The notes under the pieces are model-generated. The model had not been told where the DNA came from. It saw only the letters and a list, made by a program, of their open reading frames with translations, and made no database searches. Source: a virus. Taken from it: a stretch of 64,000 bases of DNA. The stretch is from positions 20,304 to 84,303 of the IMG/VR virus record IMGVR_UViG_3300032046_000014; one strand, 5' to 3'. Both the position numbers and the translations under genes were made by a program. Every line of letters starts with the position of its first letter. Position 1 is the first letter of the stretch. Positions 43,340 through 63,209 of this stretch are shown piece by piece.

Positions 43340-43351
43340 GATGATCCTGTT

Positions 43352-43513: not shown

Positions 43514-43541
43514 ATTAACGGATGGTACTGATAGATCGTAC

Positions 43542-47118: not shown

Positions 47119-47642
47119 ACAGCGATTACCTAAGCGTCAACAAGACAACTGGAAAACCACACTATACATACGGACAGAGCCAACAATGCCATGAACGGGA
47201 GCACGGACTGTTCTTTCATCCGAGAACGGGAGAAAAGATAGTTTGCCTAAGCGAAGCCAACATACGATATAAGACGATCTGGAAGCCAAAAGCGGAACGC
47301 ATGATCGTCAACGGTGACACGGTGATCAAGGTTCCAAGCACCGACAAGGTCAACGGCACAATACCGCAAACAGCTTATCACCGAATAGTAAACGCGATAA
47401 CGGAAACACCAGTCAAGGTATGTAAGACGGGAGACGGTCACACGTTCCTAGAGAATCCCGCAGCATGGCAGCTTAAAGCGGTCAACACTAAGAAGCACTT
47501 TTACGGAGAACGCAAGCATGGATACGCAAGCAAGGCAATAATCGAGGCACACCAACAACCAAGATGGAGACCGCCAGAAAAAGAAGCACCTCATAAGCTG
47601 AGGATAAGCAGCAGCGGTAAACTCAAGCTCTGCAGAATCTAA
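47115..47642 (+). CDS. Basic hypothetical protein
   Basis: ATG 47115 after a GGTGG RBS. Confidence 0.6.
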   Translation: MNSDYLSVNKTTGKPHYTYGQSQQCHEREHGLFFHPRTGEKIVCLSEANIRYKTIWKPKAERMIVNGDTVIKVPSTDKVNGTIPQTAYHRIVNAITETPVKVCKTGDGHTFLENPAAWQLKAVNTKKHFYGERKHGYASKAIIEAHQQPRWRPPEKEAPHKLRISSSGKLKLCRI

Positions 47643-47966
47643 GCGCAGAGTTGGCAAGCGGAACCTAAAAGGTTCATTCCGCAAGCCTCGAGCACTGGGA
47701 ACCTTTGAGAAGCCTAAGTTTCCCTTGGCGAGAAAATCCGCTGAGAAGCCATAGCTTTTCAATCCTAGTTATTCCCTTCGGAGAATAGCTACATACGCAA
47801 GCTCTTTGCGTACGACGGACTGACCCGTAGTGGAATGAAAGTCCGAATCCACGAAATTTTAGTAGTGGATCAAAAAGGGAGAAAATAATAAAGCCCAAGC
47901 CCATGGGCACACATCCAATTAATGACAAAGTTTTCATTAATCCGCAAAGCTCGACAACTTTGCGCT
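47642..47966 (+). ncRNA. Candidate large (325 nt) multi-hairpin ncRNA
   Basis: 12-bp closing helix AGCGCAGAGTTG/CAACTTTGCGCT, inner TCGAGC/GCTCGA, at least eight hairpins. Confidence 0.75.
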
Positions 47967-48043
47967 AAGGTGAAAACTTAAACAAAGATATTATACGATG
48001 AGGTCGCCAGTAGCGCGGCGACTGAGCTAAGCTCCTAACATTC

Positions 48044-48108
48044 TTTTTTCTATTCTCCCTAGCAAGGGATTGACAATGACCGTGAAACTCGGTCGAAAAT
48101 AGAAAAGG
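48044..48108 (+). ncRNA. Type III hammerhead ribozyme, U3-A8 variant; predicted cut after C48055
   Basis: Stem III TTTTCTAT/ATAGAAAA, UUC site, stem I TCCCT/AGGGA, core TTGACAA+T, stem II GACCG/CGGTC, GAAA. Confidence 0.8.
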
Positions 48109-48224
48109 ATGGTGATATAAAGAATGTTAAGCGGAAACCAAGCTCGAAAACTTCGCCTTAGAATACTCGGCGAAGACCAGTACAAGATCCTCATGCAACT
48201 GCATGGACGGAAGGTGAAGACGCA

Positions 48225-48868: not shown

Positions 48869-48881
48869 CCCTTCCTTTTGT

Positions 48882-48954
48882 GGACCGTAAGTTGAGCAGC
48901 CTCCACGACGGCGCGGTCTGGAACAGGATTATTCACCTGTACTAAGTGCTCAGC
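48882..48954 (+). ncRNA. HDV-like self-cleaving ribozyme 1; predicted cut 5' of G48882
   Basis: P1 GGACCGT/GCGGTCT with G1.U; P2 GTTGAGCA/TGCTCAGC; P3 GCC/GGC; L3 TCCACGAC; P1.1 CC/GG; P4 ACAGG/CCTGT; J4/2 ACTAAG (catalytic C48942). Confidence 0.92.
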
Positions 48955-48987
48955 AGATTACCTGCAGGTGCAGGAGGTGAAACAAAG

Positions 48988-49821: not shown

Positions 49822-49843
49822 AACCAACAGACTCTTTCTTTGT

Positions 49844-49901
49844 GAGTTGCAAGCTGAGACGCCTCCACGTGGCGCAACTTGGAATACGCGAAGAGCTCAG
49901 C
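49844..49901 (+). ncRNA. Minimal (P4-less) HDV-like ribozyme 2; predicted cut 5' of G49844
   Basis: P1 GAGTTGC/GCAACTT with G1.U; P2 GCTGAG/CTCAGC; P3 GCC/GGC; L3 TCCACGT; GG; J4/2 CGAA. Confidence 0.85.
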
Positions 49902-49928
49902 AAAACGATTGGAGTGTGAAAAAAGAAA

Positions 49929-50105
49929 ATGACTGTAGTATTCTTGGTGCAACGACTGGTCCACGGCAGATGGCAAAGCATCGGAGCTGTCTTCTGCAGG
50001 TACGACCGCAAGGCAGCACTACACCGCGCGCATGAAAACCCAATCATGCATGAACTACTGGCTGGCCACTGTGAAGACGTAGAGTTTTTGAGGTGGCTAC
50101 TGTGA
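49929..50105 (+). CDS. 58-aa hypothetical protein
   Basis: GGAGTGTGA RBS; manual translation MTVVFLVQRL... Confidence 0.5.
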   Translation: MTVVFLVQRLVHGRWQSIGAVFCRYDRKAALHRAHENPIMHELLAGHCEDVEFLRWLL

Positions 50106-50287
50106 AGACACTGAAGATCCCGACGCTTGTGAAGATCATGGGCGGCTGGGTTATGATCCAGCTCGGCAGCTTCCAATGGTGCAGCATAGGCGATCCACTC
50201 GGCGGAATCCTAGCCGTGACAGTCGGTCTCTCCCTGTTTCTTTGGGGACTATCAAACATAACCAACAATTGTGAGGTGATAGAATGA
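50093..50287 (+). CDS. Small membrane protein
   Basis: Two hydrophobic segments. Confidence 0.5.
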   Translation: MATVKTLKIPTLVKIMGGWVMIQLGSFQWCSIGDPLGGILAVTVGLSLFLWGLSNITNNCEVIE

Positions 50288-50640
50288 CAAGTATAACCGT
50301 AGAGGTTAAGGAAGAAGTCTGGCATGATCCCATCGAAGACGCGGAACTCGTGATACTGAGATTCAAGAATCCAGAAGAGCTAATGATGGCAGCGCATGAA
50401 GGCGTCACCGACATCGGCCTCTGGAAGAAGAAGGCCGGGATCGCGGTGCCGCTCCACGTGCAGAACCTCGTGGAATACCTGATGCAAAGACGCGAGATCA
50501 TAACTGCAAAAGCAGTCACAAATCTTCTCTGCCATTCACTGACAGTCCTACCGATCCTGGAAGGCATACAAGAAGCTCTCGACCTCGAATACTGTGAAGC
50601 GGAAGACAAGCTGCACCTGCAAGGAGGCGAACAAGTATGA
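50284..50640 (+). CDS. Hypothetical protein
   Basis: GAGGTGA RBS. Confidence 0.6.
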   Translation: MTSITVEVKEEVWHDPIEDAELVILRFKNPEELMMAAHEGVTDIGLWKKKAGIAVPLHVQNLVEYLMQRREIITAKAVTNLLCHSLTVLPILEGIQEALDLEYCEAEDKLHLQGGEQV

Positions 50641-50786
50641 AGCCGGAACTCACAGAACTCAGCCGCATAATCTGCAAACCCTGCAAAGCCTCGGACTACG
50701 AAGACTGCGCTCACTGCAGAATCCACGTACTCGTCAACAAGCTAGACTGCTGAGAGCAAGAAGCCGGCCGTTCAAAGGTCGGCAAT

Positions 50787-50847
50787 CCAAGCGTAATCGC
50801 TTGGCAGCAGGAAACCGCTGAGCCCAAATTGAAGGGCTGAAAAAGAG
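50787..50847 (+). ncRNA. Three-hairpin RNA motif, copy A
   Basis: Homologous to 57551..57611 with compensatory changes. Confidence 0.7.
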
Positions 50848-51007
50848 GCCAATGATCTTTTGGAGTGTGAAAGAAAGATGGAAAAGAAATCTACACGTTT
50901 GTGCGACCAGATACAAATGGTCAAGTCGTACACCATCAAAGAACCAGACGGCGGCAAAACAGTCGTCTATGTTAGTAGTCAACCGTGGAGAGAGAGGTGA
51001 GTGAAAG

Positions 51008-52675
51008 TTGACATGGCTAGATAAGTCAATCATAGAACGGCTCTGCCAAAGAAGCTGCGGCTTCATCTTCCAGACAGAAGACAAAGTGCGAATTGAACAG
51101 CTGATCAACTCGGCAAGACAATGCAACCTAAGCAAAGCCTTCAAGGCAAACTACGCAAGCATCCTCGAATACAATATCCTCCGCAGAGAACTTAAAGAAC
51201 TCAAGCCGACCAGCGAAACCATACTCGCGCCGGAACCTGGCAAGTCATACTTGCAGATCATAGACGAACGACTACACCAAACAGCCTCGCGTACAGACCA
51301 GCCGCAAGGCGCTCTCGTCATAATCCACTGGGTCCTAACCAAAGCCCACGCTGACAACATAGCGGACATGCTTGCCAGCTGGAGCCAAGACAAGACAATG
51401 TACAAGACCACGAGCACAGTATTCGTGTTCACGAGCGACGAAGGATTATTCAGCGAAACAGTCAGACGCCTATGCTACACAACTGAGATCGAGCCAGGCT
51501 CAGACGCAGAGTACCGGGACGTTCTCGATACACTTGCAGCTAAGATGAAGCCAGCCTTGAAGCTCAACGTCACAGAACAGTTTGTGCAAGCGCCAAGAGG
51601 ATTAACATTGCATCAGACGGAAACAGCAGCCTTGAAAGGAATCTACACGAACCCGGAAAGGCAGTTGTCACTGCCGCCGTTCACTGACCTCAAGATACAG
51701 ATACTGCGTTCAAGCGGCCTAGAATTCATAACGCCGAGCTTCGGCTATGAAGCAATAGGCGGCTTCGAAAGTATCAAGCAAGAATTCGCTGACTTCGTAG
51801 TGGCGCCATTGCAAGACCCGGCGAAAGCATTGTACTATGGCCTCGGCAGCCCAAGAGGAATCATCGAGTATGGACCTCCAGGCGTCGGCAAAACAGTGTT
51901 CGCCATAGCCACAGCCAAGGCGTTAGAACTGCCAATGGTAAAGCTTACACCTGCAGACCTGTACCGCAGCCTCGTAGGCGAATCAGAATCCCGAGTGAAA
52001 CACTTGACGGAACTCATTGAAAGCCTCTCGCCAATCGTAGTGTTCATAGACGAAGTAGACCAGCTGTTCATCGCAAGAAACCAAGTTATGATGACGGACT
52101 CAGGAGTCAACAGACGCATACTCAACGGCTTGCTTGACTGGCTAGGCCAACCAAGCAGACGAAGCTTCGTTATCGGAGCAACCAACTGCATAGAACAGAT
52201 GGACGAAGCAGCAACCCGGGCAGGAAGGTTCGACGAGATCCTCTTCATCCCGTACCCGAACCGCAAAGCCAGAGAAGACATCTTCAAGATACAATGCACT
52301 ATGACGCACAAGATACCGGTAGCCAAAGAACTCAGCTACAAAGAGCTCGCAGCAGAAAGCCAGTTGCTAAGCGGCGCAGAAATTGAGAAGTGGTGCATAC
52401 TCGCATCACGAGCAGCAATGCGTCACGGCGACAAATACGTCACTCAAGACCACTTCAAAGACACGGTAAGCCAGATAGTTATTGACCCGAAGAAACGCTG
52501 GGATGATCTGCAGGTGCAGGTGAAACGTCTTAGGACGATGAGCAACGTGAACGTACCCTTGTTGGAAGAGAGCCTGCAAGAATTCTATGATTCAGAGAAA
52601 GAAGTAGGCGATGAAAGAACAAGTAGTTTCCTGAAGATAATAGGTGAAAATGGAACGGAGGGAACAGCACTATGA
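51008..52675 (+). CDS. AAA+ ATPase (Ycf46-like: degenerate N-terminal and intact C-terminal AAA domain)
   Basis: GPPGVGKT, VFIDEVD, GATN, RAGRFD. Confidence 0.9.
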   Translation: MTWLDKSIIERLCQRSCGFIFQTEDKVRIEQLINSARQCNLSKAFKANYASILEYNILRRELKELKPTSETILAPEPGKSYLQIIDERLHQTASRTDQPQGALVIIHWVLTKAHADNIADMLASWSQDKTMYKTTSTVFVFTSDEGLFSETVRRLCYTTEIEPGSDAEYRDVLDTLAAKMKPALKLNVTEQFVQAPRGLTLHQTETAALKGIYTNPERQLSLPPFTDLKIQILRSSGLEFITPSFGYEAIGGFESIKQEFADFVVAPLQDPAKALYYGLGSPRGIIEYGPPGVGKTVFAIATAKALELPMVKLTPADLYRSLVGESESRVKHLTELIESLSPIVVFIDEVDQLFIARNQVMMTDSGVNRRILNGLLDWLGQPSRRSFVIGATNCIEQMDEAATRAGRFDEILFIPYPNRKAREDIFKIQCTMTHKIPVAKELSYKELAAESQLLSGAEIEKWCILASRAAMRHGDKYVTQDHFKDTVSQIVIDPKKRWDDLQVQVKRLRTMSNVNVPLLEESLQEFYDSEKEVGDERTSSFLKIIGENGTEGTAL

Positions 52676-53067
52676 GTCACACAACAGTCTACCTAACCAA
52701 ACTCGGCAACCTTAACCCGCAAATGCTCAAGGCAGCAGTTGAATACTTCGCCAAGATGCTTGGAGCCACCGTCTTCCATGGCACGATCCACAATGAATAC
52801 GATGACGAGACCAGACAGATAATCGTCGGATTCAAAACCGACGACCTGCCCCATGGCATAGGCTTCAACTTGGACCACGCCGGCAACCTCGTAATCGTCG
52901 GCGACCCATACGACCAAGCGGAAGCATACCAAAAATTCATTGACATGGCCACCAGCGGCCAGATCACCAACGCCTATCAGATCGCAATGAACGCGCAAGA
53001 GAACAATGAAACAGTAGATTCAAGAGTCGAAGGCGACAGCATCATAATGGAAGTGAACCCACAATGA
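52672..53067 (+). CDS. DUF1257/Ycf35-like protein
   Basis: MSH.T..T.L, IGF, GDPY, AY; follows the AAA gene. Confidence 0.6.
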   Translation: MSHTTVYLTKLGNLNPQMLKAAVEYFAKMLGATVFHGTIHNEYDDETRQIIVGFKTDDLPHGIGFNLDHAGNLVIVGDPYDQAEAYQKFIDMATSGQITNAYQIAMNAQENNETVDSRVEGDSIIMEVNPQ

Positions 53068-53246
53068 AAACCACAATAGTTCTCACGAAGGACGGAAAGA
53101 TCCATACGGACGCTGAAGGCTTCAACGGACCACAATGCATGATAGAGATCCAGAAGTTGCTCGCCGGTTTGGTCACGCAAGAAGTAGACACGAAACGGAA
53201 GAATGAGTATTATGCAAACGAAACAGAAGCTTCAACTGGTGCTTAG
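53064..53246 (+). CDS. DUF2997-like protein
   Basis: KDGKI..DAEGFNGPQC...K.EYY. Confidence 0.7.
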   Translation: MKTTIVLTKDGKIHTDAEGFNGPQCMIEIQKLLAGLVTQEVDTKRKNEYYANETEASTGA

Positions 53247-53381
53247 AAGCAACGCGATAGTTCCTGTTGGTTACATCGATGACCAAGAGGAACACCGCGT
53301 AGACGAGCTCCTAAAGAACATAGAAGTCACAGGCAAAACACAAGTGCCTTGTGGCTAAAACAGGTATGGAGTGTGAAAAGA

Positions 53382-54521
53382 ATGACAGATGAACAGCCTA
53401 AACTGCCAGACATAAACGTTCCAACATTGCCCTTGCCAGTCGACAGCAACCGTGTTGACCAGTTCCTAGCACACTTGCCACCGCCAGAACACACCGAATT
53501 CGAATTACTCTGTATGAAACGGCCAGTCATGCTGCAGGGCATACTGTTCGACATGCACTTCCACGGCGACGACCTCTTGAAAACGCAGGCGCCGGGACTC
53601 GGCGAAGACGTCTTCAACCAACTGAAGAATCATCTTGAAGACCAGATGATAGTCCTAGACCGCAAGTATGCACACAGAGAAACAAGCGGAGCCGCAAGCT
53701 GGGAAGCATACGGCAGCCGCAGCAAAGAACAGGAAGACGGCACTGACAGAACTCGCAGCATAAAAATCAGAGTGTTCCCGCGCAGCTTCTATAACAAGTT
53801 AGCCAGCTTCAAAGACCGCTTGGTCACAGAGCGACTGAGCAAATGCATAATGATTGAAAGCTACAAGAGCGGCAGATACAAGGAATGCATATACATTCTG
53901 CCCTATGAAAGCGCGCCCAGCATGGTAGCGCTCATAGAGGCGGTCAACCGGGAAATCGACATGTTCAACAAGGAAGTACAAGAGTACCTCGGCAGCCAAG
54001 ACTACCAGAACGTACGCGGAGTGCTTGAACGGTTCCACATGGAACATTTAGTAGACAAGAAATCCTTTATGATTCCGCATGTTGAGTACAGACTGATCCC
54101 GCTTGCATTGAATCCGAACGTAGTCATGGACATGGTTAAAACTAAGGAAGGCACATTGAACGAGAAACTGCAGCAAGAGTATGAATCAGGAAGACAACTG
54201 CTTCAAGAGAGCTTGGAACGTCAAAGCCAAGAGCTTGTTACAGCTGCATTAGCAAAGCTGAAGAAGGAAATCGACGCCAACGTGACACAAATAGTCATGA
54301 AGATGAAGACTGACCCTGACCGTGTGAAGGCTGACTTGGACAACATCAGACGAAAGGCAGACATGATCGGGCTTGAAGCATTAGCAGACAGCGTCATCAA
54401 CCCATTGAAACTGCTCATCGACACGCCAGACAGAGTCGAAGAACTATTCGGAGTCTCAGTGCTCGGCACGTTGCCTGAAGCAGTTGACGAAAGAATCAAA
54501 GCCCTGCTCAAAAGCCTCTAA
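53382..54521 (+). CDS. Helical hypothetical protein (possibly DUF3150-like)
   Basis: Context after the AAA/DUF1257/DUF2997 genes; YILP motif, coiled coil. Confidence 0.5.
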   Translation: MTDEQPKLPDINVPTLPLPVDSNRVDQFLAHLPPPEHTEFELLCMKRPVMLQGILFDMHFHGDDLLKTQAPGLGEDVFNQLKNHLEDQMIVLDRKYAHRETSGAASWEAYGSRSKEQEDGTDRTRSIKIRVFPRSFYNKLASFKDRLVTERLSKCIMIESYKSGRYKECIYILPYESAPSMVALIEAVNREIDMFNKEVQEYLGSQDYQNVRGVLERFHMEHLVDKKSFMIPHVEYRLIPLALNPNVVMDMVKTKEGTLNEKLQQEYESGRQLLQESLERQSQELVTAALAKLKKEIDANVTQIVMKMKTDPDRVKADLDNIRRKADMIGLEALADSVINPLKLLIDTPDRVEELFGVSVLGTLPEAVDERIKALLKSL

Positions 54522-54538
54522 CCTACAGGTGAAGCGAA

Positions 54539-54736
54539 GTGAACAAGAAACAGTTCAAGAAAGCGATTAGAAGCCTGCCTCTTGGAGCACAGCAGACAAT
54601 GGCAAGAGCGCTCTCAGGTGAAGAAAGTTACCTAGTGAGAGTATGCACTTGCGGTTGCAAGTACGTGAGCCGAGACTACGGCTTCCATTATGAGCCCTTG
54701 GAGAGATGCCAGAAACATCTGAGCAAAGGGAGGTGA
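54539..54736 (+). CDS. Small Cys-rich protein
   Basis: CTCGC...CQKH; CTACAGGTGA RBS. Confidence 0.55.
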   Translation: MNKKQFKKAIRSLPLGAQQTMARALSGEESYLVRVCTCGCKYVSRDYGFHYEPLERCQKHLSKGR

Positions 54737-54744
54737 GATAAAGA

Positions 54745-55143
54745 ATGTCAGCGCAACAGAGCTACTATGCAGAACAGTTCCACGTGAGAAGTGAGACGCG
54801 GAACAAATGCAACAGGTGTAGAAACAAGTTTCCCAACGCTCAAGACAGCTGCCCTAAATGCGGAAGTACCGACGTCGCTCCGCTCGAACACACCGTCAGT
54901 CTCAGACATGATGGCGGATGGGAATGCGGATGCGAAAGCTGGATCTTCGGACGCAAACGACATTCGTCAGGCTGGGGATGCAAACACATAGAAGAAGTCC
55001 GCGCAAGTTATGATGCTGCAGCTGTAGCCGCAAACCGTAGAGCAGGGCAACGCACCGTCATCCGAACCGCCGAGAGCACAATCGAACTCGCCGAAGACCC
55101 CGATGGTCGCATCAAAGGCTTCCTCGACAAACTCGACAAGTAG
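54745..55143 (+). CDS. SWIM zinc-finger protein with zinc ribbon
   Basis: CNRC/CPKC; CGC...CKH. Confidence 0.75.
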   Translation: MSAQQSYYAEQFHVRSETRNKCNRCRNKFPNAQDSCPKCGSTDVAPLEHTVSLRHDGGWECGCESWIFGRKRHSSGWGCKHIEEVRASYDAAAVAANRRAGQRTVIRTAESTIELAEDPDGRIKGFLDKLDK

Positions 55144-55251
55144 GCTTCCTGCAATTCCGAGGGACTGTATGCTGGTCGTTTCATCCTAGCAGAGTCTGCA
55201 GTGCCGCCAAAGTCGGTCTAGCGAGCCCTGATGACGAGCAGAGAGAAGCCT
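55143..55251 (+). ncRNA. Candidate intergenic structured RNA
   Basis: GGCTTC/GAAGCC and CTGC/GCAG closing stems; internal GACT/AGTC and TGCTGG/CTAGCA. Confidence 0.45.
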
Positions 55252-55379
55252 GCTTCCCAATTTCATACACCTGTATTTTCCTTCAGAATTCTTAAGCCCC
55301 ACACGCCTGTGGGGAGGCTGGACATCCTGCCACGGGAACGGTGGCGAAACAGCCAATAAATGGAGTGTGAAAAGAAAGC

Positions 55380-55574
55380 ATGAAAACTTTTGGAAAGAAG
55401 CCTGAGTCCTCCGCCCGCGCCCACGTCGTTGTCAGATGGTGGGAAGCTGGCAAGCTCAGGTACTTGACCGTTGGCACGGTGTATGCTGCACCTGCAGAAG
55501 TCGCCAAGTATCTTGAAGAGAAGCTTGCTGAACACTGGGGAAGCGGGGTGAACCACACCCCTACAGGTGCATGA
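55380..55574 (+). CDS. Hypothetical protein
   Basis: GGAGTGTGA RBS. Confidence 0.55.
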   Translation: MKTFGKKPESSARAHVVVRWWEAGKLRYLTVGTVYAAPAEVAKYLEEKLAEHWGSGVNHTPTGA

Positions 55575-55704
55575 CCTTGGCGACCCATTGTGACTGGTGC
55601 GGCAATGAGATTGAAGGAACTCCCATCAGAGCCTACGAAAAACGGGATGGCTGCTGCCTTGAACTTTCACGAAGCCCCATCAAAGGCGGCAAACCAATAG
55701 TCCT

Positions 55705-56046
55705 ATGCAGGAGGTGCGCAGAATGAAAAACCCGCAGCTTAAAATCTGGAACCTAAAAGCAGTTGAAACCGCACTGCGAAACAGAAGAAACAGCTCAACC
55801 GCCTACACCATAAGACAAGTGCTAGACCTCCTCTCCTCCAACTGGGACACCGCCATGACCCCTGAAGAGATACAGCTAAAGTTTGCTGAAGCACTCAACA
55901 ATGCAACAGACGAACTAGCCGAAGCACTCGCAGACTTCGACGCTTGCATTTCTCCAGACGAAGAAGCGTACGAGGCAATGCGAAGACACGTTGAAGAAGC
56001 ACAGAAGCATTTGCTGCCGCTCCTACAGGTGAAGAATCATGCCTGA
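55705..56046 (+). CDS. Hypothetical helical protein (true start probably 55723)
   Basis: GGAGGTG RBS. Confidence 0.55.
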   Translation: MQEVRRMKNPQLKIWNLKAVETALRNRRNSSTAYTIRQVLDLLSSNWDTAMTPEEIQLKFAEALNNATDELAEALADFDACISPDEEAYEAMRRHVEEAQKHLLPLLQVKNHA

Positions 56047-56167
56047 ACAATCCTGCCTAACCTGCAAACACAGGGGCGACTGTGAAGACACGGCTGAAAC
56101 GACAACCCACTGCATAGACTACGAACCTGACTACGAACCTGCAACAACAAACTACAGGTGAATCAGC

Positions 56168-56455
56168 ATGAGCGAAGAAGCCGTCAAGTTCAAGCCGCTT
56201 GAAGGCTACGTCTACTATCCTGAAGGCACACCTCGACAGGTAATCAGCGTTCTCCAACATGCCCGCGCCGAACACACGCGACTCCACCTCTGCTACGGCG
56301 ACCCAGCTACAGGTGAAGACTGGAACGAAATCTACGATTGCACGGGCATCATCGGCCGCACCACGGGCCCAGAGCCCATTCCCATCCTCCTCTACAACAA
56401 GCGCAGCCTCGGCGGAACAGCAGTCCTCACCAAAAACATCATCAAAATCACATGA
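56168..56455 (+). CDS. Conserved phage-type hypothetical protein
   Basis: YGDP.TG.DW.E...G.IGRTTG...IPILL...SLGG. Confidence 0.65.
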   Translation: MSEEAVKFKPLEGYVYYPEGTPRQVISVLQHARAEHTRLHLCYGDPATGEDWNEIYDCTGIIGRTTGPEPIPILLYNKRSLGGTAVLTKNIIKIT

Positions 56456-57250
56456 AACAAGGTACACCTACACTCGAACTCACAAAGAATCCCAAGGGGC
56501 ACATGGCAGGCCAACACACTCCACCTGCCAAGCCCCACAACCCAGAACAGTCGCCAACCATCCCTACCTACACCTGCACCAACAAACTCACCATCAAACA
56601 CTCACCATCCCTCACAACCACGCATGGGGTTTTGTGTTTAGTTTTTGTTGTTGTGTTGTGGTTGTGTTGGTTTTGTTGGTTGTTCTTGTAGGGGTTGTTC
56701 TTGTTGGGAAGGGTTGTGGTTTTGGTTGGTTGGTGTGTGTTGGTTTGTTTGTTGTTGTTTGTTTGGTGTTTTTCTTCTTGTTTGGGCGTAATGTTTATAG
56801 TTTTGTGTGTGGTGTTGTTCTTGTGGATGGTGTTTGATTGAAGCCGTTGATTTTTAGTGAGGAAGATTTTCGTCTTCGTCTTGTGGATGGGCATGAGGAG
56901 TATGATGTGTGTGAGGATAGGCGTATGTTGCATGTGGAGTTTTCTGGGGAGAAGAGTTTTTGGAAGATTGAGAAGGTTGTGGTGTTGGAGCAGAGCTTCA
57001 CGGTTATGCTTTCACGGGTGAAGAGGGAAGAGGAGAAGGGAAGGGATGGATAGTGCTCGTAGGCTTGAGTTGCTTTGTGTTGTTGTTGTTTGTTTGGAGC
57101 GTAGGTGTAGTCCGAATGTGGTTTTGGAGAGGCTGCTTGGGTTGCAGGTGAAGGGAGAAGAGCTTGTGGAGGTTGCCGCTGCGGCTTCGGCTTTGCTGTT
57201 TGACCAGTTGGAAGTGGAGTATGGTGGCAGGTGGGCGGCGGAGGCGCGGG
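56455..57250. other. AC-rich to GT-rich compositional switch element 2 (centre about 56622)
   Basis: Same architecture as element 1; GT bias decays through the downstream genes. Confidence 0.6.
56838..57053 (+). CDS. Hypothetical protein with GT-shifted codon usage
   Basis: Normal amino-acid composition; chained overlap with the next genes. Confidence 0.45.
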   Translation: MKPLIFSEEDFRLRLVDGHEEYDVCEDRRMLHVEFSGEKSFWKIEKVVVLEQSFTVMLSRVKREEEKGRDG

Positions 57251-57297
57251 AACGGGCAAGAGCGTTAGTTGCAGGTGTAGGAAGTGAACAGGGATGA
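57046..57297 (+). CDS. Hypothetical protein with GT-shifted codon usage
   Basis: Overlapping start/stop chain. Confidence 0.45.
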   Translation: MDSARRLELLCVVVVCLERRCSPNVVLERLLGLQVKGEELVEVAAAASALLFDQLEVEYGGRWAAEARERARALVAGVGSEQG

Positions 57298-57560
57298 TGC
57301 AGGATAGGCCAGTTGACGAGCGTTTGAAGGAGATGTTGGATAGGGTAGAAGCGGCGGCGAAGAGACTTAGAAAATGGAAGCGGAGAAACATTGTAAGGGG
57401 ATGGCATCCGACTAAAGAGAAGTGCAGCGAATGCAGCAGGCCGCTCCCGTACAACAATGATAGGAAACGAAGCCTTTGTAACCCGTGCAGCGCAAGAAGA
57501 CAAAGCCGCTTGAACAGGCAGAAGCACCTGCAACAAAAGGAGAGAGAAAACCAAGCGTAA
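57294..57560 (+). CDS. Basic zinc-finger protein
   Basis: CSEC...CNPC. Confidence 0.6.
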   Translation: MMQDRPVDERLKEMLDRVEAAAKRLRKWKRRNIVRGWHPTKEKCSECSRPLPYNNDRKRSLCNPCSARRQSRLNRQKHLQQKERENQA

Positions 57561-57611
57561 CTCGTTTGGCAGCAACGGAGCCGCTGGGCACAAGTGAGTG
57601 CCGAAAAAGAG
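57551..57611 (+). ncRNA. Three-hairpin RNA motif, copy B
   Basis: Homologous to 50787..50847. Confidence 0.7.
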
Positions 57612-57643
57612 CTCCCTCTAAAAATGTGAGGTGCAACGAAAAA

Positions 57644-58519
57644 ATGAAGTTAAGGTACGGCGAATTTGAAGCCGAAGTTTCAAAAGACCTTTTAGACGTG
57701 AACAAACTGGGTGATCAGCCAGTAATAATTGAACTGGTCAAAAACCACGCGGAAATCTGCAGCAAATGCCCACAGCACGTTGACTGCAAACAGTTTCCAT
57801 GGTGCAGCCAGATACAGGTGAAAGAGTGGCAAGTGCCCCTGTACCCTAACGGCGTAGCCCCTGATGAGCATGGCAAGCCTAAGACGGTGTGGCGTAAGGG
57901 CGACATCTGCACGTGCCACAGCAACGCGCGCGTAGTCATCGCAGACGGCAAACCACGTGAAGTGTTTGCTGAAGACGTGCAAGGCTACGAAGTCCTGCCC
58001 GACGGCAACGGCGGAGTACGCTTAGAAGTTAGGGTGCCCTTCATGGAAAGCACAAGCACACTGGACATCGGCGACTCTGACCTATATCCTGCAGGTGTAG
58101 CAACCAATTTTCTGCAGGAAAAGAACTATGAACTGTACGCGAAGCCCATCAAGAAACAGGCGGACAGCATCCGCAACGAACGCCGATTCTACGAGCTGGT
58201 TAAGAAGCTGTTCGAGAAGCATGTGGTCGTTGTGAAGACGGGGTTCGTGTTCAAAAGCGGAGTCTACGTCAGCTGGGCAGTAGTGCTGGAGCCAATCATC
58301 TTTGAGGACGGCAGCTATGACCTTCACATGTTCACCACCAAATGCAATTTGGTGTGGCAGCATCGACGGCCAGTTCCGCCCGAAGCAACTGCACCTGCAG
58401 AAGCATCAACAGTCAACAACCTGAAGGCGCTGAGCAGCTTCTTGGAACACGCTAAAACCGCGAAGGCCACCACGCCAATCGCGGCTTCTCCGCCACTCCA
58501 ACTCCAACAGAACCAGTAA
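57644..58519 (+). CDS. Divergent Ku-like DNA end-binding protein with Cys-rich insertion
   Basis: LRYGEFEAEV, EDVQGYE, EKNYELY, RFYELVKKL, GFVFKSG..AVVLEP, LHMFT parallel the prokaryotic Ku core. Confidence 0.55.
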   Translation: MKLRYGEFEAEVSKDLLDVNKLGDQPVIIELVKNHAEICSKCPQHVDCKQFPWCSQIQVKEWQVPLYPNGVAPDEHGKPKTVWRKGDICTCHSNARVVIADGKPREVFAEDVQGYEVLPDGNGGVRLEVRVPFMESTSTLDIGDSDLYPAGVATNFLQEKNYELYAKPIKKQADSIRNERRFYELVKKLFEKHVVVVKTGFVFKSGVYVSWAVVLEPIIFEDGSYDLHMFTTKCNLVWQHRRPVPPEATAPAEASTVNNLKALSSFLEHAKTAKATTPIAASPPLQLQQNQ

Positions 58520-58543
58520 CCCCAAGGCTACAGGTGAAAGAAG

Positions 58544-58765
58544 ATGGTGACTAAAGCAGTGAAGATAGTGACCGAATGGGTTGACGGCGGAGTAATCGCG
58601 GACGCACTTGCCGAGAACCTGAAGATACGCGGCGTACCCGCCTCCGTCAACAACATGAAAGGCTTATGGCTGGCCACCTTAGAAAGCCTACCCAGAATGT
58701 TCGACGATGTTCCCGACGAAAGAATCATCAGGGAAGCCCAGAAGCTACAGGTGAAGAAGCCATGA
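58544..58765 (+). CDS. Hypothetical protein
   Basis: CTACAGGTGA RBS. Confidence 0.55.
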   Translation: MVTKAVKIVTEWVDGGVIADALAENLKIRGVPASVNNMKGLWLATLESLPRMFDDVPDERIIREAQKLQVKKP

Positions 58766-59142
58766 TCATCTACGTTGTAACCCACGTCAGCGCAGGAATC
58801 CATCAGGGAATTCACGCCTTCAGCAAGAAGAAAGACGCAGACGCTTACGAGAAGTATCTCTGCCAACAAAACAGTGTACCCTATGAAGCCGCAGCCCGCG
58901 ACCAATACTACGAAGAGAACGAAGTTGACGACGATATTATCCAGTGGACAGTGGAAGTAGACCAGCTCCTACAGGACAGCATGCCCCACCTCAAAACCAA
59001 AGTAAAGAAGACTGGCACAACGATCGAGGTCATTGACTACGGCGAAAATTTTGTTCCCCGCTACTGGTCAAAACCAAACCGACAAGGAGTAAGCCATGGA
59101 TACCAGCCTGACAAGCTGGAACTACAGGTGAAGAACCCATGA
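58762..59142 (+). CDS. Hypothetical protein
   Basis: CTACAGGTGA RBS before ATG 58762. Confidence 0.55.
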   Translation: MIIYVVTHVSAGIHQGIHAFSKKKDADAYEKYLCQQNSVPYEAAARDQYYEENEVDDDIIQWTVEVDQLLQDSMPHLKTKVKKTGTTIEVIDYGENFVPRYWSKPNRQGVSHGYQPDKLELQVKNP

Positions 59143-59597
59143 CAACCGTTGAAGCTCTCATCAAACGGCTCCAAGAAGACTACAAGCCAACAACAATGTT
59201 GGCTGTGGCCATGTGGGGAATAGAGGATGTGCAAAGCCGCGCCAAAGAACGGCGCATCTACCTGTCGAAAGCAGCAGCCCAAAACATCATCGACTACATC
59301 GACAATGAGCAAGATGCGACACAGGGCATCAACTGGGACACGCTGGACTGTGCAACGGACAAGTATCTTGACGACCATCCACAGGTGCAGTACGTCTGCC
59401 CCGACTGCAGTTGGACAGTGAAAAGCAGAGCTCGCCGAATCAGGTGCAGCCATTGCGGCAGCCTCAACCTTGAACGCAAACTAGAGGACGGCAGACTCAT
59501 CAAGGCAGACGCGGACGAGAACACGCCTGAAGGACAGAAGCTCATTCATAAGGACGGAGAACCAACCTTTTGGCAGAAGGAAGGAAGTAAACAATGA
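59139..59597 (+). CDS. Hypothetical protein with zinc ribbon
   Basis: W.IEDV...GINWDT; CPDC/CSHC. Confidence 0.6.
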   Translation: MTTVEALIKRLQEDYKPTTMLAVAMWGIEDVQSRAKERRIYLSKAAAQNIIDYIDNEQDATQGINWDTLDCATDKYLDDHPQVQYVCPDCSWTVKSRARRIRCSHCGSLNLERKLEDGRLIKADADENTPEGQKLIHKDGEPTFWQKEGSKQ

Positions 59598-60004
59598 CAA
59601 GTCTCGCAAGACAGTTTGAAGAATGGATGGTTAACGAACGCAGCATGGACAAGGACGAAATAACGGCCGTGTGGTTCAGACAACACGAAGGCTGCTATCC
59701 CGAAGGCTATCTCAAAGACGAAATAAGCATCAACATCATCGACAAATTCTATTACCCAATAGACTTTCTGCTGGAACTGGTTGAACGACAAATCCCAAAC
59801 CTACACCTGAAAACACGAGTCAACGTCATGCCCAGTCTGGAAGACACCACCTACGCAGTGGCCTACGTCATAGACGGACAAGTGCTCTTGGAGGAACAGG
59901 CCAAATGCTGGGGCTTCAAATTCTCGAACCGAAGAGAGTTTACCCAGTGGGCTAAGACGACACTGAAGTATATGCTGAAGGCAGCCACAGGTGAAGCGTC
60001 ATGA
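59594..60004 (+). CDS. Hypothetical protein
   Basis: 136-aa ORF in the operon chain. Confidence 0.55.
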   Translation: MTSLARQFEEWMVNERSMDKDEITAVWFRQHEGCYPEGYLKDEISINIIDKFYYPIDFLLELVERQIPNLHLKTRVNVMPSLEDTTYAVAYVIDGQVLLEEQAKCWGFKFSNRREFTQWAKTTLKYMLKAATGEAS

Positions 60005-60216
60005 AAGAGAAGCGCAAAGTCCTCGGCTCAGACCTTATCCTCAAAGCAAACTGGACAGAGGAAGCAACACCCCAGCTTGAGAGCGTAAGCCTCCAGCCGA
60101 ACAGCATCAAACCCGCAGACATTCCAGAAGTAATTGACATCCTGCAAAGCATCTACCGCGACTACACAGTGCAAGTTGGAACCAAGGCACGCAGAACTAC
60201 AGGTGAAGCGCCATGA
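60001..60216 (+). CDS. Hypothetical protein
   Basis: CCACAGGTGA RBS. Confidence 0.5.
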   Translation: MKEKRKVLGSDLILKANWTEEATPQLESVSLQPNSIKPADIPEVIDILQSIYRDYTVQVGTKARRTTGEAP

Positions 60217-60382
60217 GCGTGCACACCGAAGAAGAACTGAAGGCAATGCCGAAGCATCCGAAGATAAAGGCAGTCAAGAAGGCTCTGGACAACCTAGTCG
60301 GACAGAAGATTTCTTACCCGATTATTCTTGAGATACAGCATGAAGTAGACGCTCTCTCGAAGAAACTGGAGAAGCTGGGCTA

Positions 60383-60577
60383 TTGATGAAATACAATTTC
60401 CCACCTGAAAAAGAATCGATCAACATGACTGAAGCAAGAAAAATACCGCATGAAGTAAGACGAATAGAGGAACATATCGAGTACATACGTTCTGAAATAG
60501 AAATGTATGAACGGTGTGTACTTGAACCGCGCACTTCAAACGCGCGCGTAAAGCGGAGGAATCCTGATGACGTTTGA
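60383..60577 (+). CDS. Small coiled-coil protein
   Basis: 64-aa ORF in the operon chain. Confidence 0.45.
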   Translation: MMKYNFPPEKESINMTEARKIPHEVRRIEEHIEYIRSEIEMYERCVLEPRTSNARVKRRNPDDV

Positions 60578-60730
60578 AGTAGCAATGTATGCGAAGCGGC
60601 CTTCAGGCCACAAGATCCTGATCGTCCGCGCCGAGTTCTCATGTGAAGGCGAAGCAGCCATCAAGAAAGAGTTCGGAGCTCTCATTCAGAAGTATGCAGC
60701 TGTAGCCACAATCAAGAGGGGACTTGCAAC

Positions 60731-61702
60731 ATGACAAGCAAAGAGAACGTGATGCTCGGCATCGACGGTTCACTCACGGATCTGCACTCTCATCCTGACA
60801 TGTACTGGCAAGCTAAGTGGGACGGGTATCGCGGCAAACTCGTATTCCAAAATGGCCACGTCAGCGTACTCAATAGAAACGGCAGCGATGAATGGACGCC
60901 GCGACTGCCAGACGTCGTTGAAGGATTGCAGCAGTTCGCAACTGCTACAGGTGCAGCAAGATTCACCCTCGACGCAGAACTCGTCGTTTTCCAAGAGGGC
61001 CACAGCAGCCTCAGCGCCATAGCGAGCAGATGCAAAACTCAGAACCTACAGATGATACAGCTGAAACTACGCAGACTCTACCCAGTGGACGTCATGCTCT
61101 TCGACATCATCGAATGGGACGACCAGCGCCTCGAGAGCGACCCGCTCATGAACAGGCACAACCTCCTAACATCACTCTACAGCACATACAGCAAAGCAGT
61201 TGCAGGCCAGCCTAAACATGTTCAGCTTACCCCGAACTATCTTGATGTGGACACGGCGTGGAACGAGTGGGTTGTCAAGCGGCATGAAGAAGGACTCATG
61301 GCCAAAGATCCTATGAGTCCATACGTGTATGAGCGGAGCTCCAGCTGGCTTAAGGTCAAGATACGGGACAGCGGCACCTTTCATGTGGTCGGCTACACGG
61401 CGGGCGATGGGAACCGCAGCGACACGTTCGGCGCTTTGATTCTGGCTGACGATGTAGGTGTATGCAGAGGACGATGCGGCGGAGGCTTCAGCTGGGCAGC
61501 ACAGGACAGCACCGCACGCCAGATCCTCCAAGCGTTACGGCAGGCGCCGGTAATCAACCCGCCATTCTCAGAAGCCGAGGTTGGATTGCCCTACACTGCT
61601 GTCGACACGAAGATGCAGGTGAAGGTAGCTTTCCTGAAAACGTTCAATGGGTCCAGCAAGCTTCGAAGCCCACAACTAATAGACTGGTGGATACCACAAT
61701 GA
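60731..61702 (+). CDS. lig: Minimal ATP-dependent DNA ligase (LigD/LigC-like)
   Basis: KWDGYR, LDAELV, FDII, EGLMAK, WLKVK, FGALIL. Confidence 0.92.
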   Translation: MTSKENVMLGIDGSLTDLHSHPDMYWQAKWDGYRGKLVFQNGHVSVLNRNGSDEWTPRLPDVVEGLQQFATATGAARFTLDAELVVFQEGHSSLSAIASRCKTQNLQMIQLKLRRLYPVDVMLFDIIEWDDQRLESDPLMNRHNLLTSLYSTYSKAVAGQPKHVQLTPNYLDVDTAWNEWVVKRHEEGLMAKDPMSPYVYERSSSWLKVKIRDSGTFHVVGYTAGDGNRSDTFGALILADDVGVCRGRCGGGFSWAAQDSTARQILQALRQAPVINPPFSEAEVGLPYTAVDTKMQVKVAFLKTFNGSSKLRSPQLIDWWIPQ

Positions 61703-62070
61703 GCGACCCGCTAACACTGCAGGAATGTAACAAGCTGGAGGCTTGGCTTGAAACAATCAAGCCTGAAGATGCAGCTGTAGCCAGGGACATATGGAACATG
61801 TTTGCAGCATTGATGGATGGACAGACGATGTCTGCCGAATACGCTGCCCCCTTATTGAAAAGAACGAAGGGACTTCTCACGCGCATGGGCGACACCGTTA
61901 CCGCGAAGTATGTTGAATGGGTGAGACTGAAAGAAGGCGATGCTCAAGCGTCCGAATGGGACAACATCCGCAACCTCCTTCACCTGATCTTTGAACCCAA
62001 GAGCGGCGGCGGCTGGAGCTGGGCCGAAATCAGACGCGGCAAATATAAAGACAATCGGGGGCGAGTTTGA
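61699..62070 (+). CDS. Hypothetical protein
   Basis: ATG 61699 overlaps the ligase stop. Confidence 0.55.
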   Translation: MSDPLTLQECNKLEAWLETIKPEDAAVARDIWNMFAALMDGQTMSAEYAAPLLKRTKGLLTRMGDTVTAKYVEWVRLKEGDAQASEWDNIRNLLHLIFEPKSGGGWSWAEIRRGKYKDNRGRV

Positions 62071-62255
62071 TGGGAAAATGGGCAAACAAGATCGTGACCA
62101 AACGACACCCAAAGTACGGCTGGCCAACAGAACATCATTGGGCATGCTCAAAATGCGGCAAAGAATACGAAGACCAATCTGACGCGATGAACTGCTGCGG
62201 CAAAGAAAAAGGGTTGCCGTGGCTGGAAAGAAGCGAACATGATGGAGGCATATAA
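62067..62255 (+). CDS. Small zinc-finger protein
   Basis: CSKCG...CC. Confidence 0.55.
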   Translation: MMGKWANKIVTKRHPKYGWPTEHHWACSKCGKEYEDQSDAMNCCGKEKGLPWLERSEHDGGI

Positions 62256-63209
62256 ATGGTAAGCCGCATACTTGATCCGCACCTATTGACCATGGATGTA
62301 CCAACAGACCTTCTCTACACGCCACTTGAAACGGAAGACAAAATCATCCTAGACCTGGGAGACGTCGAAGGCGACACATCCCCCGCTGCACCTGTACCAC
62401 TGCTCATCTTGGATGTGCCCTGCGGAGCCGGTGGAATCAGCCTCGGAATGAAGGAAGCTTTCTGCCGCACTGAACCCAGAATGGATGATTGGCATGAACT
62501 TCGACGCAGGACACGGCCGAAATATGATGAGACAAAAGCAACTTTCATCGGCGTTGACTTTGACCGAAACTGCTGCCAAACATATCAGATTAACAGAGTT
62601 GGTCAAGCGATAAGAGCAGACATGGCGCACCTGCCATTCAGGGACGGGATAGTGTTTGACTTCATCGTCGGCGGCCCACCATGCCAAGGCTTCAGCACAA
62701 TCAACACAAAAGCCCGAACGAAGAAAAGGGCGGACTCCACTTATGAAGATCCGCGTAATAATCTCAGCTATATCTTCGCTGATATAGTTAAGATATATCA
62801 GCCTGCCTACTTCATGTTTGAAAACGTGCCTGGCATACGAAGCTGGGACAAGGGCGAAATCTTCAAGCACCTGCACTGGCTCTTCCACAAGGCAGGATAC
62901 CATTATGAATGGCGCCTCACAAACTACGTGCACTACGGCATCCCACAGTCGAGAAACCGCGTCATAATTCTCGGCTGGATGCCGGGAATGCCACGATGGA
63001 TTTTTCCAGAGCCCACAAACTACTGTCCAACATGGAAAGAGAAGGGCTACTGTATGGAATGCGGCGGCTACATGATCAGAGATCTAGTCCGCAACTACAC
63101 TCGGAACCATCCGAAGCAGACGCGGCAGACCCAACTGCCCAATTTTGCAGGTACAGCTGCAGGTGTATCACAGTCTTACCCATTATCAAAAGGTAAGCAG
63201 GGGAGGTGA
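62256..63209 (+). CDS. DNA cytosine-C5 methyltransferase (motifs IX-X not evident)
   Basis: PCGAGG, GGPPCQGFS, FENV, PQSRNRV. Confidence 0.85.
   Translation: MVSRILDPHLLTMDVPTDLLYTPLETEDKIILDLGDVEGDTSPAAPVPLLILDVPCGAGGISLGMKEAFCRTEPRMDDWHELRRRTRPKYDETKATFIGVDFDRNCCQTYQINRVGQAIRADMAHLPFRDGIVFDFIVGGPPCQGFSTINTKARTKKRADSTYEDPRNNLSYIFADIVKIYQPAYFMFENVPGIRSWDKGEIFKHLHWLFHKAGYHYEWRLTNYVHYGIPQSRNRVIILGWMPGMPRWIFPEPTNYCPTWKEKGYCMECGGYMIRDLVRNYTRNHPKQTRQTQLPNFAGTAAGVSQSYPLSKGKQGR

Follow-up and report, generated by a model that had tools for sequence, protein, structure and literature searches.

In operons of a methanogen, processing sites in 5'UTRs or intergenic regions, located upstream of ribosome-binding sites and close to them, raise stability and translation; these sites carry a uridine signature (PMC5499594). 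In bacterial operons, intergenic stem-loops set the stability of segments (PMC4423207, PMC10311766). Selective RNA processing and stabilisation (SRPS) in operons is recognised by a stable stem-loop in a gap between co-transcribed genes, a mapped endonucleolytic processing site and flanking segments that differ in half-life. The element described here resembles the stem-loops of SRPS operons and the methanogen sites in several respects: stable hairpins occupy a non-coding gap between co-directional genes of an operon, a ribosome-binding site follows shortly after them, and a single-stranded stretch lies exposed next to them. Unlike the generic hairpins of SRPS operons, the element, known here from its sequence, is defined by that sequence, has discrete limits, has been copied and ends in an unvarying purine tail; unlike the methanogen sites, it has no U in its tail.

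The class I intergenic repeats of halovirus HF2 (56-58 bp) carry a BRE, a TATA box and a start site, and are experimentally proven promoters which are conserved in place among related viruses (PMC8707807). The HF2 repeats and the present element are alike in length (about 58-61 nt), in lying in intergenic gaps of the early-middle part of an archaeal (here probably archaeal) tailed virus genome and in keeping their place among related viruses. They differ in what is conserved: in HF2 and its relatives it is the sequence, centred on TATA with BRE and start site (PMC8707807); in the present element it is the pairing, and a conserved A/T box is absent.

Self-cleaving ribozymes of phage and virus operons occupy, like the element, a non-coding gap that stops about 30 nt ahead of a start codon. 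A hammerhead core consists of CUGANGA ... GAAA around stem II in a three-way junction, and an HDV-like core of a nested double pseudoknot formed by interleaved strands of P1 and P2 that enclose P3. In contrast to these ribozymes, the element is without catalytic core, junction or nested pseudoknot, and its loops are unconserved. In the phages lambda and HK022, the nut and put RNAs are found close to early promoters, and their target is the bacterial RNA polymerase, on which they act in cis to suppress terminators downstream; put RNA comprises two hairpins and is present twice, with compensatory differences. We know of no archaeal precedent for antitermination RNA of the nut/put type. Both cases involve small hairpin RNAs of early operons, of which each genome has two copies that differ by compensatory changes; the present copies, however, lie about 4 and 10.6 kb into a transcription unit, and one relative has a single copy. 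The likeness considered here is one of position.

The window analysed was a 64-kb stretch of a virus record of 84 kb. The virus is uncultured and probably a tailed archaeal virus; assignment to archaeal viruses is plausible on the basis of an intron-bearing tRNA and TATA-type promoters. Four tRNA genes (43191-43617), with one intron-bearing tRNA, were detected with the Rfam tRNA model, and clear TATA-type promoters with strong TTTATTTAAATAT and GTATATAT boxes are located at 43811 and 46953. Comparison with GenBank phages gave neither a DNA match nor a protein match. On present evidence, the element is a narrowly distributed candidate cis-regulatory hairpin motif, represented by about five metagenomic sequences, and not a new catalytic RNA.

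Position, fold and gene context of the two copies

Two 61-nt copies are located on the + strand. Copy A (50787-50847) consists of the hairpins H1 (50787-50804; 7 bp, loop UAAU), H2 (50805-50820; 4 bp) and H3 (50821-50838; 5 bp), followed by the single-stranded tail GAAAAAGAG (50839-50847). Copy B (57551-57611) is composed of H1 (57551-57569; 7 bp, loop UAACU), H2 (57570-57586), H3 (57587-57602) and the identical 9-nt tail (57603-57611). The coordinates and the three hairpins described in the earlier note were confirmed by the sequence and by RNAfold, which predicted exactly three abutting hairpins for both 61-mers (A, -24.8 kcal/mol, z = -5.0; B, -20.9 kcal/mol, z = -2.0). Identical residues were found in 49 of 63 alignment columns, and the sequences flanking A and B are unrelated to each other. 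The exact 10-mer CCAAGCGTAA has no sites besides the two copies, and in both it is followed collinearly by the 9-mers TTGGCAGCA and GAAAAAGAG. The repeat is not a chance occurrence.

Of the 16 pairs in the stems, 13 are the same in A and B and none is broken. As the earlier note had it, two pairs of H3 carry changes in both arms (A-U to G-C, C-G to A-U) and one pair of H1 a change in a single arm (G-C to G.U); all five stem differences preserve pairing. The three indels between the copies (1, 1 and 2 nt) are all situated in loops, which rules out coding for the element. H2 is only 4 bp long, is invariant between A and B, and was displaced in some near-optimal folds of copy B with flanks. An additional 7-bp hairpin on the + strand, H0 (50763-50783), lies 3 nt upstream of copy A and was present in the minimum free energy fold and in all near-optimal folds. 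Its sequence is not common to copy B; together with H0, copy A forms a four-hairpin string, as in the elements of related viruses. The five wobble pairs all read G.U, and never A.C, on the + strand; since this was the strand on which the structures had been drawn, the count carries a partial bias. The + strand folded better than the opposite strand in three of four elements (A, B and those of the lineages L028 and L033 described below). Both observations show a preference for the + strand.

Several more complex structures were considered and rejected. A cloverleaf closing stem was predicted for copy A with short flanks, disappeared with longer flanks and was absent in B; the tRNA model found no tRNA-like cloverleaf at the element and detected only the genes at 43191-43617. 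A 3-bp kissing pair between loops L1 and L3 was at chance level by rough estimate. Copy A contains CUGA, H3 and GAAA, and lacks NGA and a three-way junction; since the A of CUGA is half of a covarying pair and is replaced by G in copy B, this is not a hammerhead core. An HDV-like fold was rejected by inspection, the three hairpins being local, with arms 4-9 nt apart and no interleaved complementarity common to A and B.

The copies occupy two of the few non-coding gaps of at least 20 nt in a co-directional, mostly overlapping gene string, an operon of 17 kb. The few non-coding gaps of this operon combine self-cleaving ribozymes, a hairpin array and the repeated hairpin-string leader. Upstream of copy A, an ORF of 38 aa with a CxxC...CxxC pattern (50637-50753, + strand) is the counterpart of the C-terminal zinc-ribbon part of an ORF that directly abuts the AAA gene in the relatives L027 and L028. 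Copy A is followed on the + strand by a 30-nt leader (50848-50877) with the ribosome-binding motif GGAGTG (50862-50867), and then directly by a 40-codon ORF (50878-51000; ATG at 50878) whose stop falls within GAGGTGA, the AAA gene's ribosome-binding site. This gene (51008-52675, + strand) encodes an AAA+ ATPase of 555 aa (Pfam AAA and AAA_lid_3) and is the second cistron after copy A. At copy B, the TAA stop (57558-57560) of an 88-aa basic zinc-ribbon ORF (57294-57560, + strand) is located in the H1 loop. A 32-nt leader (57612-57643, + strand) with the motif GAGGTG (57628-57633) separates copy B from its candidate target, a 291-aa gene (57644-58519, + strand), homologs of which are found in other virus lineages with a hairpin-string element or a conserved leader in the same place.

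The spacing of about 30 nt before a start codon reported earlier holds from the end of the tail to the ATG (30 nt for A, 32 nt for B), but the ATG after copy A opens the 40-codon ORF and the AAA gene begins at 51008. The label 'Ku-like' given to the gene after copy B found no support: profile and sequence searches of Pfam, PHROGs and PDB with the 291-aa protein gave no matches, and a single-protein search returned only the identical sequences of its own population. The AlphaFold model of this protein, calculated from five sequences, had a mean pLDDT of 45 and was too poor for a fold search.

Related viruses and searches for further copies

In a relative from a groundwater run (X7, about 92% identical), positions 50825 (C) and 50834 (G) are deleted; the comparison with X7 inside the element covers these two deletions. 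As they lie on opposite arms of H3, one whole base pair has been removed. Homologs of the 291-aa gene were found in three further metagenomic virus lineages, two of which (L028 and L033) carry in the same place, before the orthologous gene, an equivalent element: a four-hairpin string of 93-95 nt ending in GACAAAGAG. This tail differs from that of A and B by one base and ends 29 nt (L028) or 26 nt (L033) before the ATG, and a ribosome-binding motif precedes the ATG after the tail in all four elements. Between L028 and L033, six double and one single compensatory changes were counted, with one of 30 pairs broken; the flanking genes are only 70% identical at the nucleotide level and the upstream DNA is unrelated. 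The six double changes and the paired deletion in X7 further strengthen the view, put forward in the earlier note, of a repeated, structured, non-coding element before genes. Judged by these comparisons, the pairing is under selection and the element is real, structure-conserved and non-coding, with only about five distinct sequences in all.

The core and loop of H1 match between copy B and L028 (AAGNGUAACUC..UUG), with one compensatory pair. The overall correspondence of hairpins between A/B and L028/L033 is ambiguous. MAFFT paired the hairpins differently from our own alignment, and for this reason no joint four-sequence model was made. Loops are not conserved across lineages; the single-stranded tail alone is kept. 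In the fourth lineage, a different, invariant leader, possibly pseudoknotted, precedes the 291-aa homolog. A related 84-kb virus has one copy of the element and none before its AAA gene; copy A is accordingly assigned to an inserted segment of about 250 nt, which also comprises the 40-codon ORF and which two relatives lack. The idea that A and B are direct repeats flanking a mobile segment was rejected, as the order from the AAA gene to the 291-aa gene is the same in L028 without copy A.

The covariance model of A and B that had been suggested as a check gave 88 bits for either copy, against a maximum of 12.6 bits elsewhere in the 84-kb record, but did not recover L028 and L033; neither model finds the other lineage. 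Weak candidates for a third copy at 35722-35771 (12.5 bits) and at 28294-28344 (12.1 bits, inside a coding frame) were rejected. A pattern of H1 plus the start of H2 matched 21 loci in IMG/VR, all by chance and with the rest of the motif absent. H2 plus tail gave no match in IMG/VR and one chance coding match in a Clostridia MAG, and the L028-type pattern matched only its own contig in IMG/VR and gave 10 chance matches in GTDB (at most 20 bits with R2). 'CAAGC', considered as a possible signal where structured gaps begin on their 5' side, was not enriched (8 sites in 2.2 kb of non-coding versus 38 in 14.8 kb of coding DNA). At threshold, Rfam 15 detected only the four tRNAs in the whole window. 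At E <= 10, the 251-nt stretches at A and B gave nothing but chance matches far below threshold, scoring 12 (MS2), 16 (AniS) and 14 bits (mir-589), and the relatives' loci yielded weak snoRNA matches elsewhere only. By these searches the element matches no Rfam family, and the motif is new, of an ordinary kind.

Candidate function and alternative explanations

A processing signal or cis-regulator, one of the candidate roles named in the earlier note, is the likeliest of the readings considered. We favour, at somewhat short of an even chance, a cis-acting structured mRNA leader that would control processing, stability or translation. Transcription, function at the RNA level and every step of the mechanism given here are what we infer from the sequence; among the public sequencing runs listed as containing this virus, none is an RNA run. 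The element would be part of a long + strand messenger RNA, in which three hairpins (four with H0) would stack end to end and the purine tail GA(A/C)AAAGAG would always remain single-stranded, 26-32 nt before the start codon and with the ribosome-binding site in between. It would act in cis on the downstream cistron by a mechanism akin to SRPS; a stable stem-loop in a gap of a co-directional, overlapping gene string was found here. The exposed tail may be recognised by a host or viral endoribonuclease or binding protein, while the hairpin stack would block exonucleases and cap the 3' end of the upstream segment or, if cleavage occurred 5' of H1, the 5' end of the downstream segment instead. 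The element would also uncouple the downstream ribosome-binding site from upstream translation. Tail recognition, hairpin block and uncoupling together would allow the two target genes to be expressed at their own level in a tightly overlapped operon. Copy B would represent the ancestral slot, and copy A a 61-nt unit that was copied with the 40-codon ORF to a position before the AAA ATPase gene, bringing that gene under the same control.

Runs of T5 are an archaeal termination signal. They are nearly absent from 50086-56641 and 56958-63000 and present at 56642-56957 and at 63001; this scarcity fits read-through transcription. Post-transcriptional control in archaeal viruses is, to our knowledge, almost unexplored, and the operon would offer a compact natural system in which to study the division and tuning of long messages in archaeal viruses. 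Being short and sharply bounded, with clear compensatory variants, the element is suited to a reporter design in which stems are disrupted and restored.

A promoter or operator repeat at the DNA level, like the class I repeats of HF2, is unlikely. The purine tail would then be a BRE, an A/T-rich box after it the TATA box of a near-leaderless transcript, and the hairpins would either be sites for a regulator or form the 3' terminus of the transcript before them. The HF2 repeats of similar length are proven, place-conserved promoters (PMC8707807). The tail is followed by TTTACATG in L028 and CATAATAT in L033, with the ATG 26-29 nt after the tail, which is roughly right for a leaderless start; a 17-kb operon likely needs internal promoters, and T5 runs occur 600-900 nt upstream of each copy. 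However, the sequences after the tail in A (GCCAATGA) and B (CTCCCTCT) are not TATA-like, unlike the boxes of the clear promoters, and no canonical TATA box was found near either copy. A and B share no conserved A/T-rich box within the element or downstream of it, and AAAGAG followed by TTTAWAW within 12 nt has no site in the window; the HF2 arrangement of a conserved TATA about 26 nt before the start with a BRE just 5' was not seen. All four elements have a ribosome-binding motif between the putative TATA and the ATG, and a leaderless start would leave it unused. Compensatory changes and the paired deletion keep the fold and not the sequence, whereas protein-binding palindromes evolve otherwise.

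It is also rather unlikely that the hairpin string and the invariant GA(A/C)AAAGAG tail form the recognition module of an undescribed RNA-processing or polymerase-modifying system of archaeal tailed viruses, i.e. a protein-dependent counterpart of the ribozymes found between genes of this operon or an archaeal analogue of nut/put, portable enough for a copy to have reached a second gene.

A trans-acting small RNA of about 60-95 nt, cut from the operon RNA or made apart from it, is improbable. Its tail would serve as seed for a host or viral target or as decoy for an RNA-binding protein of the host. Conservation is indeed highest in a single-stranded 9-mer beside stabilising hairpins, as in many small regulatory RNAs, the boundaries are sharp, the element was copied as a unit, and ribozymes in neighbouring operon gaps could release such RNAs. 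Against this, the reverse complement of the tail is absent from both strands of the 64-kb window, no promoter or terminator of the element's own is visible, and a role in cis is indicated by the distance to the next start codon, which is fixed in all four sequences.

An RNA acting on the transcribing RNA polymerase, as nut and put do, and conferring resistance to termination over the following kilobases is very unlikely. The occurrence of two small structured copies within a single long unit of early transcription would agree with it, as would the stretch of about 5.5-6 kb without T5 after each copy, which ends in T5 runs. The single copy in the related 84-kb virus speaks against it, and the constant spacing to the start codon would be unexplained.

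It is equally improbable that the element functions as a hairpin of single-stranded or extruded DNA, for example as a priming, nicking or recombination site, tied to a composition switch. Both copy B and the L028 element have such a switch, from AC-rich to GT-rich, about 800-900 nt before them; this conserved position suggests that the neighbourhood may hold a replication feature. Compensatory changes would fit any folded nucleic acid, and copy A is located at the edge of an insertion. However, no composition switch is present near copy A, the wobble pairs are all G.T on one strand and thus weak in DNA, and the copies bound no mobile segment, as noted for L028.

Least probable is the new self-cleaving ribozyme proposed in the earlier note, placed in the type of slot held by the operon's hammerhead and HDV-like ribozymes: the tail is invariant, but the element is a plain string of local hairpins without multi-helix junction or conserved pseudoknot, no Rfam ribozyme model matched even at E <= 10, the unconserved loops argue against it, the only complementarity between loops, the 3 bp of L1 with L3, is at chance level by the rough estimate given above, and nothing suggests that the element cuts itself. 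The slot of copy A is equivalent in that its downstream leader, TGGAGTGTGAAA, is the same as that after a minimal HDV-like ribozyme at 49844-49901; this leader (repeat family D9) follows three operon gaps other than that of copy A.

Sequence and fold of the two copies

The element was examined as two 61-nt copies on the + strand, copy A (50787-50847) and copy B (57551-57611), whose sequences and coordinates were as claimed in the earlier note. On alignment, 49 of 63 columns were identical, and the flanks were unrelated on either side. The predicted fold of each 61-mer was three hairpins set end to end (H1, H2 and H3, 5' to 3'; stems of 7, 4 and 5 bp), followed by unpaired GAAAAAGAG, a 9-nt purine tail of the same sequence in both copies. 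The compensatory changes described earlier were also recovered, with two pairs of H3 altered on both sides and one G-C pair of H1 changed to G.U. Across this structure 13 of the 16 pairs were unchanged and none was broken; sliding of the 3' partners by 1-3 columns reduced pairing to 25-41%. The remaining differences were loop substitutions and three loop indels (1, 1 and 2 nt), because of which the repeat has no common reading frame and is non-coding. A covariance model of both copies (R1) scored 88 bits at each of them and did not exceed 12.6 bits over the rest of the record. A candidate third copy from this search (28294-28344) was rejected, as it lies inside a coding frame.

The source virus record (84,303 bases, with the window as its bases 20304-84303) had a CheckV completeness estimate of 78%, and the window contained four tRNA genes, of which one had an insertion of 74 nt. 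The public runs holding the virus were sediment metagenomes; a diverged relative was present in a groundwater run. Contigs of four DNA runs were compared with window positions 50000-58600. One contig of the groundwater run, 2,005 bases long, spanned 50058-52062 at about 92% identity, with 8 gaps and 162 substituted bases. Its copy A had exactly two deletions, both of single bases, at 50825 (last C of the 5' arm of H3) and 50834 (first G of its 3' arm). Since these positions are paired, one whole base pair of H3 was removed from both sides.

Equivalent elements in related viruses and origin of copy A

A word-indexed database search with the 291-aa protein encoded after copy B (57644-58519) retrieved its own near-identical population only. 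For the AAA protein (51008-52675, the second cistron after copy A), the N-terminal half yielded four relatives with 49-59% identity. Through their alignment two loci were reached in IMG/VR; L028, one of the pair, belongs to a virus of 84,165 bases. L028 encodes a 287-aa homolog of the 291-aa protein (41% identity, E = 2e-66), located about 7.6 kb after the start of the AAA match, compared with about 6.6 kb in the window. A full HMMER search for 291-aa homologs added two further clusters, and one scan of metagenomes returned eight loci belonging to three lineages.

Elements were located upstream of the 291-aa homolog in L028 (95 nt, 17532-17626) and in the related loci L033/L034 (93 nt). Both consist of four hairpins, namely an extra 5' hairpin H0 (8 bp), H1 (4-5 bp), H2 (6 bp) and a composite H3, and continue into GACAAAGAG, with the ATG 29 nt (L028) or 26 nt (L033/L034) later. 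Between the L028 and L033 lineages the downstream proteins were 63% identical and their genes 70% at the nucleotide level, whereas the upstream 110 nt were unrelated. Among 30 pairs of the two elements, six were altered on both sides, one on one side, and one was broken; slid controls gave 0-1 double changes. H0, a GACAU spacer and the tail were invariant. Copy B and L028 had the H1 loop UAACU and most H1 stem bases in common, and one pair was exchanged, C-G to A-U.

Given what stands upstream of the 291-aa homologs, the elements of the window, L028 and L033 can be regarded as position-equivalent and probably homologous. Their hairpin-by-hairpin match is uncertain, because MAFFT pairs the hairpins differently and neither R1 nor the model of the L028-type element (R2) finds the element of the other lineage.

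A fourth lineage (L030-L032, L036 and L037) carries a nearly constant leader of roughly 100 nt beside a strongly diverged upstream ORF. This leader has a different fold, its CAAAGAG leads directly into a GGTGA ribosome-binding site, and no covariation was found among its sequences. Two interleaved stems, GUCGC/GCGAC and GGCUCAU/AUGAGCC, occur in L030 (1075-1171) and likewise in L031, L032, L036 and L037; they suggest an H-type pseudoknot.

The L028 virus has one copy of the element, and in L027 and L028 an ORF with a C-terminal zinc ribbon runs straight into the AAA gene. The window's counterpart of this ORF, 38 aa long, is separated from the AAA gene by copy A and a 40-codon ORF, an insertion of about 250 nt which was present in the groundwater relative as well. 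From the single copy in L028 and the AAA gene without insertion in both loci, the slot before the 291-aa gene is best read as ancestral, with the 61-nt unit copied later in front of the AAA gene. Copies A and B do not bound a mobile segment, since L028 has the AAA-to-291-aa order without copy A.

Gene context, proposed function and alternatives

The + strand carries a gene string from about 47 kb up to the end of the window. Most of its genes overlap by 4 nt or meet at the ribosome-binding motif CTACAGGTGAA, and gaps of at least 20 nt are few. Copy A lies in the non-coding gap 50754-50877 and copy B in 57561-57643. Other + strand gaps of at least 20 nt were 47643-48224, 48869-48987, 49822-49928, 53247-53381 and 55144-55379, and 56456-57045 formed an odd gap region. 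Copy A is followed by 30 nt with GGAGTG and then by the 40-codon ORF, whose stop falls within GAGGTGA, the ribosome-binding site of the AAA+ ATPase gene (51008; Pfam AAA, 9e-28). Copy B is followed by 32 nt with GAGGTG and the 291-aa gene, for which family searches gave no assignment; the ORF before copy B has its TAA stop in the H1 loop of that copy.

Non-Watson-Crick pairs in four elements were G.U on the + strand in five of five cases and A.C in none, a count to which the drawing of the structures on the + strand lent some bias, and the + strand folded better than the - strand in three of the four. This partly biased count, together with the co-directional genes, favours action as sense RNA. 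An Rfam search of the window, the surroundings of copies A and B and the loci of the relatives gave no family match for the element. The element is real, selected and uncatalogued, and was copied within the virus. A small clade of uncultivated viruses keeps elements of this kind before a single gene family. As a motif it is new; its class, that of cis-regulatory hairpin leaders, is ordinary, and its function is putative.

Most likely, the element would be a structured leader that acts in cis within an operon transcript made by read-through. An archaeal termination signal, the T5 run, was nearly absent from the + strand at 50086-56641 and 56958-63000 and clustered at 44.6-46.9 kb and 56.6-57.0 kb; the near-absence fits long transcripts. 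The proposed roles are modelled on bacterial operons, which have stem-loop stabilisers, and on methanogen operons, in which processing sites lie just upstream of ribosome-binding sites (PMC5499594). By analogy, the exposed tail would serve as recognition or cleavage site, and the hairpin stack would form a barrier to exonuclease and insulate downstream from upstream translation. We infer each step of this mechanism, the outcome of which would be an expression level of their own for the two served genes.

The reading as a promoter retains some weight because TATA-like boxes directly follow the tail in L028 and L033. The HF2 intergenic repeats are proven promoters and are built around a TATA box (PMC8707807), whereas no A/T box is conserved between copies A and B, while the virus's own promoters stand out. 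Its strong TATA-type boxes lie at 43811 and, directly after a T6 run, at 46953. A double-stranded protein-binding palindrome is hard to reconcile with the compensatory changes and the paired deletion. The new ribozyme proposed in the earlier note is unlikely: across lineages the loops vary and the tail alone is kept, the opposite of a catalytic core. A hammerhead was rejected, as CUGA before H3 in copy A is CUGG in copy B because that base covaries; an HDV-like ribozyme was rejected since every helix is local, and a tRNA-like element was likewise rejected.

Neighbouring features

Small ORFs with a CxxC...CxxC zinc ribbon lie directly upstream of both copies (50637-50753 and 57294-57560) and upstream of the L028 element (17150-17335). 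Of these, the 88-aa ORF (57294-57560) shows a basic tail and, among the PHROGs, a weak 'endonuclease' match (E = 0.005). These small proteins are candidate partners of the element. Four cistrons after non-coding gaps (49910, 50861, 53367 and 55361) have the leader TGGAGTGTGAAA(A)GAA..ATG in common, one of them after a minimal HDV-like ribozyme and one after copy A; overlapping gene junctions use CTACAGGTGAA and not this leader.

Within 43800-64000, + strand T5 runs were strongly avoided inside gene strings. At about 56625 (region 56460-57350) the + strand switches abruptly from A/C-only to G/T-rich sequence, with GC skew changing from -0.39 to +0.68 and AT skew down to -0.66; four T5 runs lie beside it at 56642-56957. 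The switch is about 900 nt upstream of copy B, and L028 has one of the same polarity (L028 16600-17000) about 800 nt before its own element, which makes the switch a conserved feature of the module. It may serve as an origin, act as a cluster of terminators or form a long AC/GT hairpin.

The hairpin array at 47642-47966 has AAGC between successive hairpins; the related pentamer CAAGC was not enriched in the non-coding gaps of the operon overall. A further gap, before a gene with the TGGAGTGTGAAA leader, is also structured (55290-55360), with a 7-bp hairpin CCCCACA/UGUGGGG followed by a stem enclosing the hairpin GCCAC-GGGAACG-GUGGC. The loop and stem core of the latter are nearly those of H2 in the L033 element (UCCACA-GGGAACG-UGUGGA), and the structure possibly belongs to the same hairpin module in diverged form. 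A very strong fold was predicted for 53246-53385 (-45 kcal/mol, z = -4.7), with two long hairpins directly before a 379/390-aa gene; this stretch overlaps a doubtful 51-codon ORF.
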